A DNA stretch of 64,000 nt from positions 640,001 to 704,000 of the forward strand of contig OZ219918.1 in NCBI GenBank assembly GCA_964291415.2. The letters are read 5' to 3'. Position numbers and translations under genes: made by a program. The notes beneath the pieces are model-generated. The model searched no databases and was not told the origin of the DNA. It saw only the letters and a program-made list of their open reading frames with translations. Shown here piece after piece: positions 2,578-47,137 of this stretch (position 1 is the first letter of the stretch; each line of letters opens with the position of its first letter). This DNA is from Alphaproteobacteria bacterium. Lineage in GTDB: Bacteria > Pseudomonadota > Alphaproteobacteria > SP197.

Positions 2578-3024
2578 TCAGTTCCCCGTGCCGTCGCTTT
2601 CGAGCATCGCGGTCGCGAGCACGTCGGGCAGTCTCTGCATGACCGGCACGGGAATCGTGGTCGCCTGCGACCACGTGACCGCGTAGTCGCCGCCGTCGCG
2701 CCTGCGGTAGACGAGGAAGAGCCTGCCGTCGTCGGAGATTGCCAGCTCGGCCCATTCGTTGTGATAGAAGCTGTCGAGGTCCGCGGCGTCTACCACGGTG
2801 GCGAGTCGCAGCCGCTGGGGACGGCTCGCCGGATCCATCACCGTCAGCACTTCGGGAACGGCCGCTGCCGCACGTTCGAGCGCATCGCTGAGCAGCGCGT
2901 CGAGTTCGTATCTGCGTGCCTCTGGAAACGCGCTCCAGCGGATCAGAATCTGGGCGCGAAGCCGAGCAAGGGGCTCGCCCCCGGAGGAAGCGGCTCCTTG
3001 GTCCGATTGGGCTGCATCCGACAT
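2578..3024 (-). CDS. Hypothetical protein, first gene of the nfeD-floA operon
   Basis: 148-aa ORF with GGAG RBS, abutting nfeD, protein-like composition. Confidence 0.6.
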   Translation of the reverse strand: MSDAAQSDQGAASSGGEPLARLRAQILIRWSAFPEARRYELDALLSDALERAAAAVPEVLTVMDPASRPQRLRLATVVDAADLDSFYHNEWAELAISDDGRLFLVYRRRDGGDYAVTWSQATTIPVPVMQRLPDVLATAMLESDGTGN

Positions 3025-3203
3025 GGCTCCATTGTCGGGATTGAGACGCGTTGCGACAAGTGCGGCCGCGACGGAACCTCATCGACACTGACCGCGAATG
3101 CGCCAGGCGCAGCGGCTCATTGGGAGCATGGCGCAACAACTCGCATTGGCGAGGAGACCGCCGAAGACCGTGCCGACCAGGGGGATTGACCGGCCCGTTG
3201 CCT

Positions 3204-37237: not shown

Positions 37238-37315
37238 GGCCGCGGGTCGCGACAAGCTTTCCTGGAGCAGACGTGTCAGCGCACTGCGCAGCGGCGCCTT
37301 GCTGAACTCGTAGAG

Positions 37316-37630
37316 TTCCACCAGCATTCCCTCGGAACTCCCGGCGCCCGGGCAGGATTTCGTTGCTTGGCGCGCGATACACCCTGTCGTCGAGGCCTTC
37401 CTTCTGCCGGTCCCTGCCGGAATTCCCGACTGTAGCCGGGAAGGGCCTGATTCGATCGGAGTGGTACCTCAGGCCACCGCCTCGCATCCTGTTTCGCGGC
37501 TTCGCCTCGGTAGTGCCGGAACCCTCCAGCGAACCAAGGCCTCCGGGTGCATCGGCGCTGTGTTCCTGAAATCGCCTAGGGGCCGGACGGGGCGATCCCG
37601 GCCTCGCCATTCTCGGAAGATCGCGACCTC
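37316..37630. repeat. Dispersed non-coding repeat, copy 1 (copy 2 at 43848-44038)
   Basis: Both copies run TTCCACCAGCATTCCCTCGGAACTCCCGGC...GGCGCGCGATACACCCTGTCG...GGAAGATYGCGACCTC; copy 1 has an extra ~135 nt between GGGCC repeats. Confidence 0.85.
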
Positions 37631-41960: not shown

Positions 41961-42387
41961 CATGCTCCACACCGTATCGGTGCCGGATCCAGCTTCACGT
42001 CCGATACCGCCATGGCCACCGTCTACAATCCCAACTCCCTCCCGCACCCGTCCCAATCCCTTGACGACGATTCTAGTCCGTCCCTCTCTGCGGCAGTTCC
42101 CGTGCCAGCCTCCGATGTCCTCACCGGTTCCAAATCCCGGTCGGCCGCCTTCCCGTCCTCCGGTCCCGTCACCCTGTCCTCCCCCAACGGCGTCGATGGT
42201 GGAAGAAAAAGCCGTTATATCGCCGAGAGTTATGTGAGAGACGACGCTGCTCGTCGAGGAGCGTCGTCGTGTGCGTACTCTTCCTTGTTAGACATCATGG
42301 CTTGACCTGCCCTGGCCTCGAGGATCGTGGGTTATTCTCGAGGTCAGGAACCCTTTGAGCACAGAGCCACATCGAGGAGGGCAGGTC

Positions 42388-43515
42388 ATGATCGATTATA
42401 GCGCATACGTTGGTCTGGACGTCCACAAGGAGACGATTGCGGTAGCGGTTGCGGTGCCGGGTCGAGAGGAGCCGGTGTACCGGGGCGAGATCGCCAATAA
42501 GCGTTCGTCCCTGCGGCGTCTGGTGGGGCGGCTGAGCCCCGATGGCGAGGTGTTGAGCTTTTGCTACGAGGCCGGTCCCTGCGGCTATGGGGTGTACCGG
42601 GAGCTTGTGGCGACGGGGCACGACTGCATGGTGGTGGCGCCGAGCCTGGTTCCGCGCAAGGCGGGTGACCGGGTGAAGACGGACCGCCGTGACGCTTTGA
42701 ACCTGGCGCGTCTTCATCGTGCCGGGGAGTTGCGTCGGGTGTGGGTTCCCGACGCCGACCAGGAGGCGATGCGGGACCTGACGCGAGCGCGCGAGGACAT
42801 GAAGGCAATCGAGCTCAAGGCCCGGCAGCGCCTGGGGGCGTTCCTGCTGCGCCACGAGCGGATCTACGCCGGGCGCAGCCGCTGGACGCAGGCGCACTTC
42901 CGCTGGCTTGAGCAGCAGTCCTTCGAGCATCCGATGCAGCAGGTGGTGTTCCAGGAGTACGTGGACGCGGTGCTGGACGCCCAGCGCCGGGTGGCGGGCC
43001 TGGAAGATCAGATCCACCAGGCCGTGTCGTCGTGGTCGCTGCGTCCTTTGGTGGAGGCCCTGATGAGCCTGCGCGGGGTCAACGTTCTCACCGCGGTCAC
43101 GGTGCTGGCCGAACTCGGCGACCTGACGCGCTTCGACAGCCCCCGTCAACTGATGAGCCATCTGGGCCTGGTGCCCAGCGAACATTCGTCGGGTCTGAGA
43201 CGGCGTCAGGGTGGGATCACCAAGACCGGCAACGGTCATGTGCGCCGCGTGCTCGTCGAGGCCGCCTGGAGCTATCGCTTCGCGGCCCGCAAGACGGCCC
43301 ATCTCAGGCGCAAGGCAGCCTCCGCCCCGCCCCGCGTCCAGGCCCTCGCCTGGGCCGCCCAGAAACGCCTGTGCGGGCGCTACCGGCGGCTCTCCCATGC
43401 CGGCAAGGCGCACTGCCAGGTGATCACCGCCGTGGCCCGCGAGCTGGCCGGCTTCATATGGGCCATCGCCTGCGAGATGGCCGGCCGTCCCCACAACAGT
43501 CGCGCCCTGGCCTGA
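42388..43515 (+). CDS. IS110-family recombinase/transposase
   Basis: RuvC-like DEDD (VGLDVHK, CYEAG, KTDRRDA) and Tnp domain GLVPSEHSSG...ITKTGN; GAGGAGG RBS. Confidence 0.96.
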   Translation: MIDYSAYVGLDVHKETIAVAVAVPGREEPVYRGEIANKRSSLRRLVGRLSPDGEVLSFCYEAGPCGYGVYRELVATGHDCMVVAPSLVPRKAGDRVKTDRRDALNLARLHRAGELRRVWVPDADQEAMRDLTRAREDMKAIELKARQRLGAFLLRHERIYAGRSRWTQAHFRWLEQQSFEHPMQQVVFQEYVDAVLDAQRRVAGLEDQIHQAVSSWSLRPLVEALMSLRGVNVLTAVTVLAELGDLTRFDSPRQLMSHLGLVPSEHSSGLRRRQGGITKTGNGHVRRVLVEAAWSYRFAARKTAHLRRKAASAPPRVQALAWAAQKRLCGRYRRLSHAGKAHCQVITAVARELAGFIWAIACEMAGRPHNSRALA

Positions 43516-43578
43516 GATCCGCAGGGCCTGAAACAACCAACAACTCTGCTTGGCAGGGCAACCAACAAAGGACGATCA

Positions 43579-43779
43579 GGCATGACGGGTGCGGAACGCG
43601 GGCGGCCGGTGAGGAGAACCCTCGTTCGGGCTATGCGAGGCGAACCGGAACGTTCGTCAACCCGCGTTGTTAGACAGAGGCAGCTCCGCGACGAAGTGAA
43701 GTCAAGTGGTAACCAACCCACGGATATCAGAGTGATCCACCGTCGCAACAAGCCGCCCGCGGTCCGCTCCCGTCATGCC
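43579..43779 (+). ncRNA. Predicted bridge/seek RNA of the IS110 element
   Basis: A 28-bp closing stem (26/28 paired) encloses two stem-loops whose internal loops match the element's target and junction sequences. Confidence 0.75.
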
Positions 43780-43847
43780 AAAAGGGGGTGGGGACAAAAA
43801 CAGACCGAGCCGGTATAGACAGGTCAATCCATATCAGCCCCGTAGCG

Positions 43848-44038
43848 TTCCACCAGCATTCCCTCGGAACTCCCGGCACCCGGAGGCAAGCGGCACAGCA
43901 GGATCTTGTTCCTTGGCGCGCGATACACCCTGTCGTTGAGGCTTTCCTTCTGCCGGTCCCTTCCGGATTCCCGACGGCAGCCGGGAAGGGCCGGACGGAG
44001 CGGTCCCGGCCTCGCCATTCCCGGAAGATTGCGACCTC
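43848..44038. repeat. Dispersed non-coding repeat, copy 2
   Basis: Direct copy of 37316-37630 lacking the central ~135 nt. Confidence 0.85.
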
Positions 44039-44152
44039 TCGCGGCGGTGGCCCGCGCTGGGGCCGTTGACGAAACAACACCTTTGTGCGCGCCGGCAAGA
44101 GCGATATGATGACCGGGGCAGGTACGCGGCACGCGTACAGCGAAGAGATGAC

Positions 44153-47137
44153 ATGGGGATTGCCAAGCTAGCTTCGAAGTTCGTCTCCTTCGACATGATC
44201 ATGTTCGGCCTTCACAAGCACCTGATCATCACGAGAGCGAGATTTCCCGAGTTCGCGCGAAAGATGGCCGAACGCGACCTCGTGGCCCAGGTCATGATCC
44301 ACCAGGAAAGGTCCGGATACTGGTTCGAATTCAGGGGCGGGAAGGTCAGGCTCTCGAAAGGGGTCTACGAGAGGCCCGATGTGACCCTGGGATTCCGCGA
44401 CCGGCGCACGGCCAGAGACCTCCTGATCCCGCCCTTCGACTGGTCCGAACAGATCCATGCCCAGAAAATGTTCCGGCTGACCATGGACGGCAGGCCGGAC
44501 GACACCGCCTGGTTCCAGCGCCTTCTCATACGTTCGACGACCATCGGCGAAAGCTACGGCCAGAATCGTCCCGGCGGCGAGGTCCGCTACGTCAACAACA
44601 ACAATGGCGGTCCGGTTTTTGTCGATGTGAAGGATGGCAGGATCGTTCGCATGACGCCCATTGTGCTGCGCGACGACGACGCGAAATCCTGGACCATCAC
44701 GGCCAGGGGCAGACAGTTCTCGCCACCCCGCCGGGCCGCCATTGCCTCCCATGCCCTGTGCATGAAGTCGCGGGTCTATTCCGAAGACCGCATCATGTAT
44801 CCGATGAAACGGGTCGACTTCGATCCGCATGGCGAGCGCAACTCCGGCAACCGTGGCGTCTCCGGACACGAGCGCATCTCGTGGGACGAGGCGCTCGCCA
44901 TCGTTGCCGGGGAAATCGTCCGTTGCCGTACGCAATCCGGTCCGGGCTCGATCGGCACGCTCATATCCGCGCACCACCTGTGGGGCAATGTGGGCTACCA
45001 CCTCAGTGCCGCGCACCGGTTCTGGAACCTGATCGGCCACACCTACATCGAGCACAATCCCGAAAGCTGGGAAGGCTGGTTCTGGGGTGCGATGCATCAC
45101 TGGGGGCATTCGACACGGGCCGGGGCCGGAGATCCCTATGGCCTGGTCGAGGACTGCCTGCAGAATGCCGACATGATCGTCTTCTGGTCCTCGGACCCGG
45201 AGGCGACCGGCGGTTGCTACGCAGGCACCGAAGGATCGATCCGGCGTCAATGGGCCAAGGAACTGGGGATCGAGTTCGTTCACATCGACCCCTACTTCAA
45301 TCACACGGCGCAGGTTCTCGGCGGCAAATGGATCGCTCCGCGCCCCGGCACCAGCAATGCACTGGCGCTCGCCATCGCCTTCGTCTGGATCGACGAGGGT
45401 CTCTATGACACGGACTATGTCGAACGCGTCACCACGGGCTTCGACGAATGGAAGGCCCATATCATGGGCGAGGACGGCACGGTGCCCAAGACGCCGGAGT
45501 GGGCCGAGGTGGAATGCGGGGTCGAGGCGCACGTGATCCGTGCGCTCGCCCGCAAATGGGGCAAGTCCAGGACCTATCTCGGGGCCGGCGGCTGGGGCAA
45601 CTCCGTGGGCAGCGCCAATCGCCAGTCGACCGGCGTGCAGTGGGCGCGTTCGATGGTTTGCCTGGCGGCGATGCAGGGCATGGGCAAGCCGGGCTCGAAC
45701 ATGGGCAACCTGCAGTTCGGCACACCAATCGACTACACGTTCTATTTTCCCGGCTACGTGGAAGGCGGCATTTCGGGCGATCTGGAATACACCGCGTCCG
45801 CGGTCAGCAACTACCAGCGCATGCCGCACCTGATGACGGTGAACAGCGTCAAGCAGAGGATCCCGCGCCTCAAGTTGGCCGATGCCATTCTCGACGGACG
45901 GTGCGAAGGCAACGTCATGGCCGTCGACAGCGTGACCGGCCAGTTCGAGAAGCACGTCTATCCGGCCGAAGGCTATGCGCCGGTGGAAATGCTCTATCGC
46001 TACGGCAGCTCCTATACCGCGACGATCGGGGATTCGAACCGCCTGATCGAGGCGTTTCGCTCGCCGAAGCTGAAGTTCATCGTCAACCAGTCGATCTGGA
46101 AGAACAACGAGACGGTCTTTGCCGACGTGATACTGCCCGCCTGCACCAACTACGAACGCTGGGACATCGGAGAATGGGCGAATCCCGGGGCGCTGGTCTT
46201 TCACGCCCAGTCGCAGCTGAACCACCGGGTCGTGGCGATGCAGCACAAGTGCATCGAGCCGGTGGGCGAATCCAGATCGGACTACGAGATCTTCTTTGCA
46301 CTCTCCAAGAAACTCGGGCTGTCGGACTACTATTCCGAGGGCATGACCGAATACGACTGGGTGAAGCGGGTCTATGAATCCTCCGACATGCCCAAGGTCA
46401 TGCCGTGGAGGAAGTTCCTCAAGCGGGGCTATTACGTCGTGCCGCCGGATTCCGAGGACACCCGCGTGCCGACGGCCTACAGCTGGTTCGCGAACGAGGA
46501 AAAGAAGAATGTGCCCGACGCAACACCCGTGGCCAGCGAATACAACACGGAGTGGCTGAAGGGCCTGCAGACGCAAAGCGGCAGGTTCGAGTTCGTGCCG
46601 GAGACGCTCAGACGCAATCCGCCCGAGGTCGACCGGCCCGCCGTCAACACCTACCAGCGCGGCTGGGAAGGTTACTGGGACGAGGAGCGCCGGCGAAAGT
46701 ATCCGCTGCAGATGATTGCTCCTCACCCTCGCTACAGCTTCCACACGATGGGGGACGGAACCGATTCGTTCCTGTCCGAGATCGAGGATCACCGGGTCTG
46801 GGTGGATGGCTGGCCCTACACCAAGATGCGAATCCACCCGGAAGACGCCGAGGCGCGGGCCATCAGGGACCGGACGCTCGTGCGCGTCGCCAACGACCGC
46901 GGAGGCCTGGTCTGCGCGGCGCAGGTTACTTCGAGGATCCGCAAGGGTACGGTCCACGTCTACGAATCCTCGTCCCTCTACAGGTCCGCCGGCGAGCCCG
47001 GCAAGTCGGTGGATCTCGGCGGCGGTGCGAACCAGGTCTCGTCAGGACGCATGCAGGTCAGGAACTCGCATGCCGGCGCCGGCAACTCGATCCTCGTGGA
47101 GGTCGAGAACTGGGATGGAAAGGCAGGCTTTCAATGA
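44153..47137 (+). CDS. DMSO-reductase-family molybdoenzyme, pyrogallol-phloroglucinol transhydroxylase large-subunit-like, with extra N-terminal domain
   Basis: GGPVFVDVKDGRIVR, YPMKRVDFDP, HHLWGN, NPESWEGW (Ser Mo ligand), FADVILPACT and PHPRYSFHT motifs; no Tat signal. Confidence 0.85.
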   Translation: MGIAKLASKFVSFDMIMFGLHKHLIITRARFPEFARKMAERDLVAQVMIHQERSGYWFEFRGGKVRLSKGVYERPDVTLGFRDRRTARDLLIPPFDWSEQIHAQKMFRLTMDGRPDDTAWFQRLLIRSTTIGESYGQNRPGGEVRYVNNNNGGPVFVDVKDGRIVRMTPIVLRDDDAKSWTITARGRQFSPPRRAAIASHALCMKSRVYSEDRIMYPMKRVDFDPHGERNSGNRGVSGHERISWDEALAIVAGEIVRCRTQSGPGSIGTLISAHHLWGNVGYHLSAAHRFWNLIGHTYIEHNPESWEGWFWGAMHHWGHSTRAGAGDPYGLVEDCLQNADMIVFWSSDPEATGGCYAGTEGSIRRQWAKELGIEFVHIDPYFNHTAQVLGGKWIAPRPGTSNALALAIAFVWIDEGLYDTDYVERVTTGFDEWKAHIMGEDGTVPKTPEWAEVECGVEAHVIRALARKWGKSRTYLGAGGWGNSVGSANRQSTGVQWARSMVCLAAMQGMGKPGSNMGNLQFGTPIDYTFYFPGYVEGGISGDLEYTASAVSNYQRMPHLMTVNSVKQRIPRLKLADAILDGRCEGNVMAVDSVTGQFEKHVYPAEGYAPVEMLYRYGSSYTATIGDSNRLIEAFRSPKLKFIVNQSIWKNNETVFADVILPACTNYERWDIGEWANPGALVFHAQSQLNHRVVAMQHKCIEPVGESRSDYEIFFALSKKLGLSDYYSEGMTEYDWVKRVYESSDMPKVMPWRKFLKRGYYVVPPDSEDTRVPTAYSWFANEEKKNVPDATPVASEYNTEWLKGLQTQSGRFEFVPETLRRNPPEVDRPAVNTYQRGWEGYWDEERRRKYPLQMIAPHPRYSFHTMGDGTDSFLSEIEDHRVWVDGWPYTKMRIHPEDAEARAIRDRTLVRVANDRGGLVCAAQVTSRIRKGTVHVYESSSLYRSAGEPGKSVDLGGGANQVSSGRMQVRNSHAGAGNSILVEVENWDGKAGFQ

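Follow-up and report, generated by a model that had tools for sequence, protein, structure and literature searches.

The stretch of DNA analysed here (the window; 64,000 nucleotides (nt), positions 640,001 to 704,000 of contig OZ219918.1 from an alphaproteobacterium) contains, at 42290-43837, what is very probably a sequence-intact insertion sequence (IS) of the IS110 family and IS1111 type, with a bridge/seekRNA of about 200 nt encoded 3' of the transposase gene and on the transposase strand. An earlier note on this DNA had proposed that the element specifies a bispecific guide RNA, and this is borne out by a covarying RNA structure in which one internal loop (loop 1) tracks the target and the other (loop 2) follows the ends of the element. 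The assignment to the IS110 family made there likewise stands, on Pfam and NCBIfam matches, and is here refined to the IS1111 type, given the subterminal repeats, the 3' location of the RNA and the 5' placement of the guide complementary to the top strand of the target. All coordinates and strings listed in that note are present in the sequence.

The class has already been described (Durrant 2024, PMC11208160; Siddiquee 2024, PMC11187229; what is said of these papers throughout reflects the portions of them drawn on here), and the element is an ordinary member of this class, published in 2024 and already covered by routine annotation. IS110/IS1111 RNA-guided recombinases are under development as programmable DNA-insertion tools, solved structures are limited to IS110-group enzymes (IS621 and ISCro4), and the IS1111 side is less studied. 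The locus adds little to the principle; it offers a clean natural case from the IS1111 side, with exact ends backed by an empty site. A single genome holds one copy in a fully matching target and two sister copies that were re-aimed by a few loop changes and lie in half-matching sites, and from a set of 49 loci it can be seen which positions of the guides follow the target in practice. The locus also poses a concrete question, namely, whether IS1111-type elements need RNA to recognise the donor.

Boundaries of the element and the empty site

The element comprises 1546 bp plus a shared AG. Its non-coding regions measure 96 nt on the left (42292-42387) and 322 nt on the right (43516-43837), the latter extending from the transposase stop codon to the end of the similarity between copies. 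The layout of the element and its target is as follows.

42283-42289, + strand: left target half CCTTGTT, seen in the empty-site contig; its TTGTT is the same as the loop 1 3' guide
42290-42291, + strand: core AG, left copy, common to target and element, so that the boundary is ambiguous by 2 nt
42292-42296, + strand: left terminal extension ACATC, which together with AG makes a 7-nt extension outside the left subterminal repeat
42297-42309, + strand: left subterminal inverted repeat ATGGCTTGACCTG, matching the right repeat at 12/13 positions; ATGGATTGACCTG in both sister copies
42388-43515, + strand: transposase gene, 375 amino acids (aa), with a DEDD (RuvC-like) domain and a Transposase_20 domain with the GLVPSEHSSG motif
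43820-43832, + strand: right subterminal inverted repeat CAGGTCAATCCAT
43833-43837, + strand: right terminal extension ATC and core AG, right copy
43838-43845, + strand: right target half CCCCGTAG, its CCC matched by the loop 1 5' guide

The 13-bp subterminal inverted repeats (12/13 matching) are inset by 7 nt on the left, with AG counted, and by 3 nt (plus AG) on the right, and the flanks of the window copy read CCTTGTT-AG (42283-42291) and AG-CCCCGTAG (43836-43845). The host assembly (G000; five contigs, 4.44 Mb) contains two further full copies with 93% identity (L002 and L003), plus fragments. The three copies share their terminal bases, AG-ACATCATGG at the start and CATATC-AG at the end; the sequence outside is unrelated, and the presence of AG at both junctions of each copy indicates insertion without target duplication beyond the shared core. 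In more distant relatives, homology begins at 42289/42290 and ends at 43837.

The search for an empty site was performed by aligning contigs of four public runs to the region. In a 429-nt contig from one run (X3; depth 2.8), 42150-42289 is joined to 43836-43945, with 1546 bases skipped, two letters (AG) fitting both sides of the joint and one differing letter in each flank. This single low-depth metagenome contig is the empty site CCTTGTT-AG-CCCCGTAG of a near-identical strain, and coincides with the empty target that the earlier note had reconstructed by removing the element at the shared AG. Because an almost identical strain lacks the insertion, the insertion in the window appears to be recent. 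No clean empty site was found in the genomes of 30 relatives (31 including G000); in one of these (G001), the right-flank similarity ends near 43885, where unrelated sequence takes over, and in another (G013), the similarity of the left flank ends near 42116.

The transposase

The 375-aa open reading frame (ORF) matches PF01548 (N-terminal DEDD/RuvC-like domain; E = 6.4e-19) and PF02371 (C-terminal Transposase_20; E = 5.6e-23), and scores 276.8 bits against the NCBIfam model NF033542, "IS110 family RNA-guided transposase", for which the cutoff is 140. Its only relatives of solved structure in the PDB are the transposases of IS621 and ISCro4, with weak, full-length similarity (E = 1.3e-4 and 2.8e-4, respectively). 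When aligned to these chains, the motifs GLDVHK, YEA, KTDRRDA and PSEHSSG of the window protein face GIDTAK, IEA, KTDTVDA and PRRYESG, and by this alignment the catalytic D, E, D and D and the Ser-Gly positions are conserved; the D, E, D, D and S (of S-G) residues of IS621 are those which we take to be catalytic.

The protein belongs to a very large family: each of the 8000 candidates scored in a protein search reached significance, and the top 120 matches show 72-94% identity and are mostly 375-376 aa long. Identity to an IS5075-family transposase is 26.4% (over 79% of the query) and to the IS4321 family 28.8% (over 61% of the query). Given this identity and the length of 375 aa, the element is filed as IS1111 type on structural grounds, by marks apparent in the sequence, and not by phylogeny.

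A covarying RNA with two internal loops

The predicted RNA consists of two hairpins enclosed by a long stem, with two guides in the internal loop of each hairpin.

43579-43607, + strand: P1, 5' strand of the long closing stem; changes on both sides in 22/24 P1 pairs
43613-43687, + strand: target-binding hairpin, with P2 GGAG/CTCC, P3 CCTC/GAGG, an internal loop, P4 GCG/CGC and a variable apical hairpin
43628-43633, + strand: loop 1 5' guide GGGCTA (right target guide), complement of the target top strand T-AG-CCC
43667-43673, + strand: loop 1 3' guide TTGTTAG (left target guide), with the sequence of the target top strand, hence complementary to the bottom strand
43688-43746, + strand: donor-binding hairpin, with P6 GCGACG/CGTCGC, an internal loop and P7, the apical GUGG/CCAC
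43697-43703, + strand: loop 2 5' guide TGAAGTC, 6/7 against the complement of the left end GACATCA
43724-43731, + strand: loop 2 3' guide ATATCAGA, 8/8 against the right end, the core and the first base of the left end
43752-43779, + strand: P1, 3' strand of the closing stem

The minimum free energy (MFE) fold of 43560-43800, a check that the earlier note had suggested, reproduces the structure described there: 26 of 28 pairs are formed between 43579-43606 and 43752-43779, and two hairpins with internal loops are enclosed, the helices closing these loops being CCTC/GAGG at 43620-23/43677-80 and GCGACG/CGTCGC at 43688-93/43741-46. The energy of this fold is -110.4 kcal/mol, compared with -83.8 +/- 5.0 kcal/mol for 200 shuffles (z = -5.29; 0/200 as good).

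Covariation was assessed in an alignment of 26 sequences, comprising the RNAs of the window, of one sister copy and of 24 loci in other genomes, whose transposases are 55-90% identical to that of the window. RNAalifold predicted 49 pairs, with compensatory changes in 33. Paired cells amounted to 92.9%, against 38.7-44.5% when the partners were slid by 1-3 columns, and the covariation score was 0.505, against 0.065-0.113 for the slid partners, a value reached in none of 500 shuffles; as the structure comes from this same alignment, the comparison with slid partners favours it to some degree, but the difference is wide. P1 is the most variable helix, whereas the helices closing both internal loops are nearly invariant, and, family-wide, no block of the non-coding region is better conserved than the donor-binding hairpin. 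The excess of G-U cells over A-C cells (71 versus 12) places the RNA on the strand of the transposase gene (+).

At least 79 of the 83 related sequences examined carry the same RNA. In the host genome, an nhmmer profile of the conserved RNA core, which replaced a loose motif scan whose matches were mostly due to chance in this GC-rich genome, identified three full RNA genes and one half gene. A search of Rfam with 42000-44200 (both strands) returned no families at E up to 1.

It is extremely improbable that this 3' region is instead a structured tail of the mRNA, functioning as a stabiliser or terminator, or the coding sequence of the 78-aa ORF at 43582-43818. Such an ATG-started ORF does run across the region, and stabilisation of the transposase mRNA by the long stem is conceivable, but the ORF is not conserved (in five of six Halomonas-clade rows, no frame stays open for more than 22-33 aa), the indels are not multiples of three, and there is no T-run terminator. 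Furthermore, loop bases that change together with the flanking DNA would be left unexplained by the structure of a tail.

Loop 1 tracks the target

In the guide RNA reading, to which we adhere, loop 1 would pair with the target. The earlier note had matched its two guides to the target strands; the matches are exact in the window, and the covariation of guides and flanks that it had asked for is present across relatives, strongly so on the right side. In mononucleotide shuffles of the RNA, both target matches recurred 290 times in 20,000 and all three exact matches (including the 8-nt junction match of loop 2) three times in 20,000, whereas none of 2475 other 201-nt segments of the 64-kb window (both strands) contained both target matches.

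The two sister copies in the host differ from the window copy at the guide bases of loop 1, with TGCCTA and TCATTAG (that is, TGCC/TCA versus GGGC/TTG). Flanks of other insertions unrelated to the target of the window copy had been named in the earlier note as grounds for rejecting its proposal; the flanks of the sister copies turned out to match, in part, their own guides. The flanks of L002 (GGTT-AG-GCAGGA) are matched at 5/6 positions on the right and 2/6 on the left, and those of L003 (TCCTT-AG-TCAGTG) at 4/6 on the left and 3/6 on the right.

Guides and flanks were extracted by fixed motifs from 83 sequences (80 loci and the three host copies), of which 49 were usable. The mean matches, with the numbers of shuffles as high, were as follows; kinship among the relatives makes the shuffle counts overstate the significance, and the rows with one locus per guide class are the fairer ones.

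Right guide, distinct guide-flank pairs: n = 46, 4.24 of 6; shuffled 1.88; 0/20000 as high
Right guide, one locus per guide class: n = 23, 4.30 of 6; shuffled 1.79; 0/20000 as high
Left guide, distinct guide-flank pairs: n = 49, 3.06 of 6; shuffled 2.40; 0/20000 as high
Left guide, one locus per guide class: n = 23, 2.78 of 6; shuffled 2.12; 13/20000 as high

By position, the match on the right is 0.89, 0.98, 0.96, 0.72, 0.46 and 0.24 from +1 to +6, the level between guide classes being about 0.22-0.36. On the left, the match is 0.96 at -1, a nearly invariant T, and 0.88 versus 0.35 at -2. The bases of loop 1 thus track the flanking target across copies and relatives, but natural insertions are held to a short word, consisting of T-AG together with 4-5 bases to its right and 1-3 to its left.

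Two loci from different genomes, L038 and L040, have identical flanks (ATAATT-AG-AATTGC), and the guides of L038 differ, its right guide predicting GATAAA (2/6). Either the guide of L038 was altered after insertion, or its RNA region was swapped between copies.

In the host genome, neither another full target TTGTTAGCCC nor TCATTAGGCA was found. TTAGCCC occurs 14 times in this genome, versus about 536 expected from base composition, and TTAGGCA 11 times versus 293; words made of TTAG and G+C-rich bases are thus some 30-40 times rarer than predicted, base composition being a crude expectation in a GC-rich genome. Given this rarity, the fixed T-AG requirement would leave few candidate sites in the host.

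Loop 2 and the ends of the element

The matches of loop 2 to the circle junction that the earlier note had reported (6/7 for TGAAGTC and 8/8 for ATATCAGA) are reproduced, and the loop follows the element ends across clades. In the clade of the window element, the 3' guide ATATCAG accompanies the right end CCATATCAG; in 14 Halomonas-clade loci, ATACCAG accompanies CCATACCAG; and in the ISSfr2-like clade, [T/C]ATCAGAG occurs with the right end ACATGAGAG (6-7 of 8). The 5' guide of L019 is a perfect 9/9 complement of the left end. In most of the loop 2 variants tabulated, the 5' donor guide is mismatched at the core position, and the portions of the IS621 directionality paper (PMC13626964) drawn on here contain nothing relevant to such a mismatch. 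Taken together, the evidence for donor guides, which consists of one clean compensatory switch and a clade-level shift among the sequences compared, is suggestive, and thinner than that for the target.

This bears on the alternative that the RNA guides target choice only, as a narrowly defined seekRNA would, with the second hairpin being a protein-binding scaffold, the resemblance to the ends inherited or incidental, and the ends read by the transposase via the subterminal repeats. We regard this alternative as improbable. In its favour, an 82-nt short seekRNA of ISEc11 with target matches alone is enough for movement (PMC11187229), and the second hairpin, as the most conserved non-coding block, behaves as expected of a protein-binding scaffold. 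Moreover, most clades have mismatches in the 5' guide of loop 2, and pairing with the right end is backed by a single clean T-to-C switch between clades, which amounts to few independent events. Against it stand the exact 8-nt match to the top strand of the junction, at a position that mirrors the target guide of loop 1, the change of guide and right end together in the Halomonas clade, the perfect 9-nt complement in L019, and the donor complementarity of IS1111 bridge RNAs reported by Durrant et al. (PMC11208160).

Returning to the bispecific reading, it is possible, if on balance doubtful, that the large ISSfr2-like clade (transposases of about 375 aa) employs a true bispecific bridge RNA with a layout new to experiment, in which sibling hairpins lie under a covarying stem of about 27 bp, a possible processing site, and the effective guides are unusually short and asymmetric. 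Should donor recognition turn out to be RNA-dependent, the accounts of IS1111 elements as users of a target-only "seekRNA" or of a two-loop "bridge RNA" would be reconciled by this clade, which would also provide a compact new scaffold.

Comparison with known systems

The element resembles ISEc11, ISPa11 and ISKpn4 (PMC11187229) in most of its organisation. Shared features include a DEDD transposase with a GL-P----SG motif, the lack of target duplication, subterminal inverted repeats, a 7-nt left extension, a long non-coding region downstream of the transposase gene, a guide complementary to the top strand (GGGCTA) that precedes, on the 5' side, its bottom-strand counterpart (TTGTTAG), and related copies naturally re-aimed through changes of guide bases. 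These traits agree with what has been reported for IS1111 elements, namely, a bridge RNA predicted in the right end of 93.0% of them and subterminal inverted repeats of 7-17 bp (PMC11208160), as well as a 7-bp left extension stated for the family, and seekRNAs that co-purify with the transposase and in which the top-strand match lies 5' of the bottom-strand match (PMC11187229). Unlike the ISEc11 group, the window element has a T-AG target and core and a more distant, longer transposase, and is known from sequence alone. In contrast to short seekRNAs with target matches only, its RNA includes a second, highly conserved hairpin that matches the element ends. In many IS1111 RNAs, the donor-binding bases are located in a multi-loop (Durrant et al., PMC11208160), whereas the window RNA presents them in a plain internal loop.

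With IS621 (PMC11208160; 8WT6 and relatives), the element shares a homologous recombinase, a single RNA with target and donor internal loops, and two guides in each loop, directed at opposite strands to the left and right of a 2-nt core. The IS621 RNA, however, lies 5' of the gene, its guide order is reversed, the subterminal repeats are only 2-3 bp long, and the protein similarity is marginal (E = 1.3e-4); in the window RNA, unlike that of IS621, both hairpins are enclosed by the covarying closing stem of about 27 bp.

The closest family-named match in a plasmid collection is a protein on a Sinorhizobium plasmid (L110), annotated by NCBI as "IS110-like element ISSfr2 family transposase", which is 56% identical to the window protein over 98% of the length. 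It is accompanied by the same RNA (nhmmer E = 1.3e-28) and the same T-AG core; its left guide CAACTAG is the same as its left flank, and its right guide predicts TGGAAA, versus the flank TGGATG. The ISSfr2 element differs in its termini (AG-ACTAAATGTTCGCC ... GGCGAACATGAG-AG), loop 2 guides and targets. An Azospirillum locus also carries the same RNA (nhmmer E = 1.2e-23), with guides that match its flanks. The suggestion of the earlier note that this RNA architecture might be undescribed could not be upheld, considering the occurrence of the same RNA in the ISSfr2 family and in nearly all related sequences examined, and the published bridge/seekRNAs encoded 3' (PMC11208160, PMC11187229). The clade of the window element may already be listed in ISfinder or in the supplements of these papers.

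Proposed mechanism

Judging from the homologous IS621, ISEc11 and their relatives, excision would yield a circle whose ends are joined at AG as CCATATC-AG-ACATCAT, and this junction would create a promoter that drives transcription of the transposase mRNA and, through read-through, of the RNA. Such co-transcription of transposase and RNA was proposed in the discussion by Siddiquee et al. (PMC11187229). The candidate promoter elements are the following.

42293-42298, + strand: putative -10 hexamer CATCAT, part of a complete promoter at the circle junction only, by analogy with junction promoters (PMC11187229)
43816-43821, + strand: putative -35 hexamer TAGACA (TTGACA in most relatives), 17 nt from CATCAT after joining of the ends

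The long covarying stem may serve as an RNA-processing site, and the RNA would be bound by a tetramer of the DEDD/Ser recombinase. Each loop would then pair with two DNA strands, those of a TTGTT-AG-CCC site in the case of loop 1 and those of the junction in the case of loop 2, followed by strand exchange at AG, without duplication. Given that the donor of ISEc11 must sit in a cognate target for excision (Siddiquee et al., PMC11187229), the window copy, which is matched on either flank, should be mobile, and lower mobility is expected of the sister copies in their half-matching sites.

A segment of the left repeat, GACCTGCCC (42304-42312), is complementary to GGGCAGGTC (42379-42387), which directly precedes the ATG at 42388, beside a GGAGG ribosome-binding site. 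The two are paired in the MFE folds of the 5' region in most of 23 distinct sequences, and the predicted pairing could switch off the translation of read-through transcripts; both strands are nearly invariant and thus show no covariation.

Several observations weigh against the reading of the locus as an intact, bispecifically guided IS1111-type element. The term "intact" applies at the sequence level. Scanning of the linear element revealed no sigma-70-like promoter and no intrinsic terminator. RNA-library contigs over 43465-43838 (run X2), considered as evidence of transcription, were rejected, since at 90-95% likeness they represent relatives and may be DNA carry-over. No circle-junction joint was seen among the contigs of the four runs, although contigs cannot speak for absence. 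The transposase, at 375 aa, falls outside the 330-350 aa range of the IS1111 family and is only 26-29% identical to the IS5075 and IS4321 proteins. With regard to loop 1, 34 of the 83 sequences were dropped (motif, or end with flank, missing), which possibly biases the set toward canonical members; the left guide tracks the flank at -2 only, with weak matches at -3 and -4 (0.39 and 0.41 versus 0.26 and 0.29) and background beyond; the right guide of the window copy matches just three bases past the core; and the sister copies occupy half-matching sites. In loop 2, the 5' guide is imperfect in most clades, with 6/7 in the window and about 4/6 (by eye) in the Halomonas clade.

Some of these points would also fit a sequence-intact but inactive relic, for which the match of guides and target merely records a past insertion. 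The missing circle joint, with the limit just given, is in line with this explanation, as is the presence of a single host copy with the guide pair of the window; and with no other full target in the host, further insertions could not be seen. Nevertheless, a relic is unlikely here: the ORF is full length, like the 375-376-aa relatives, and retains the aligned catalytic positions, the helices of the RNA are preserved, 12/13 positions of the subterminal repeats agree, a near-identical strain without the insertion points to a recent event, and the copy lies in a fully matching site, as ISEc11 excision requires (PMC11187229).

Genomic surroundings and minor observations

Besides the full copies, the host genome contains pieces of related elements: a 107-nt left-end fragment (L004, G000:C1:124873-124981) flanked by GGTC-AG, a lone piece with the donor hairpin and right end (L006, G000:C2:874974-875037), and several further diverged left ends (76-78% identity) on contigs C2, C3 and C4.

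The right-flank DNA of the window copy (43841-43996) is repeated about 6.5 kb upstream (37309-37450) with 83% identity overall and 95% over the first 40 nt, and the first 70-100 nt of this repeat recur with 74-79% identity in several genomes of the same genus. In G001, the homologue of the right flank (L107, contig C145; from window position 43885) is preceded by unrelated DNA, which by eye resembles a transposase fragment of another IS family. The neighbourhood of the insertion seems to be a rearrangement hotspot. The possibility that the right flank is the start of a GntR-type regulator gene cut by the element was dropped, with Pfam empty for the 98-aa reading; searches of Pfam detected no domain in this right-flank reading or in the 95-aa left ORF.

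In all three copies on one Halomonas chromosome (L032, L033 and L034; about 2731-3060 of each locus), a segment of about 164 nt with the donor hairpin and the right end is duplicated in tandem. The second unit begins right after ...CCATACC-AG with ACCAGGGCAGC, which is the sequence that follows the TAG of the left target guide within the RNA gene. This looks like recombination of the right end with the element's own guide-coding DNA, used as a half-matching site. The right ends of L086 and L087 are duplicated as well.

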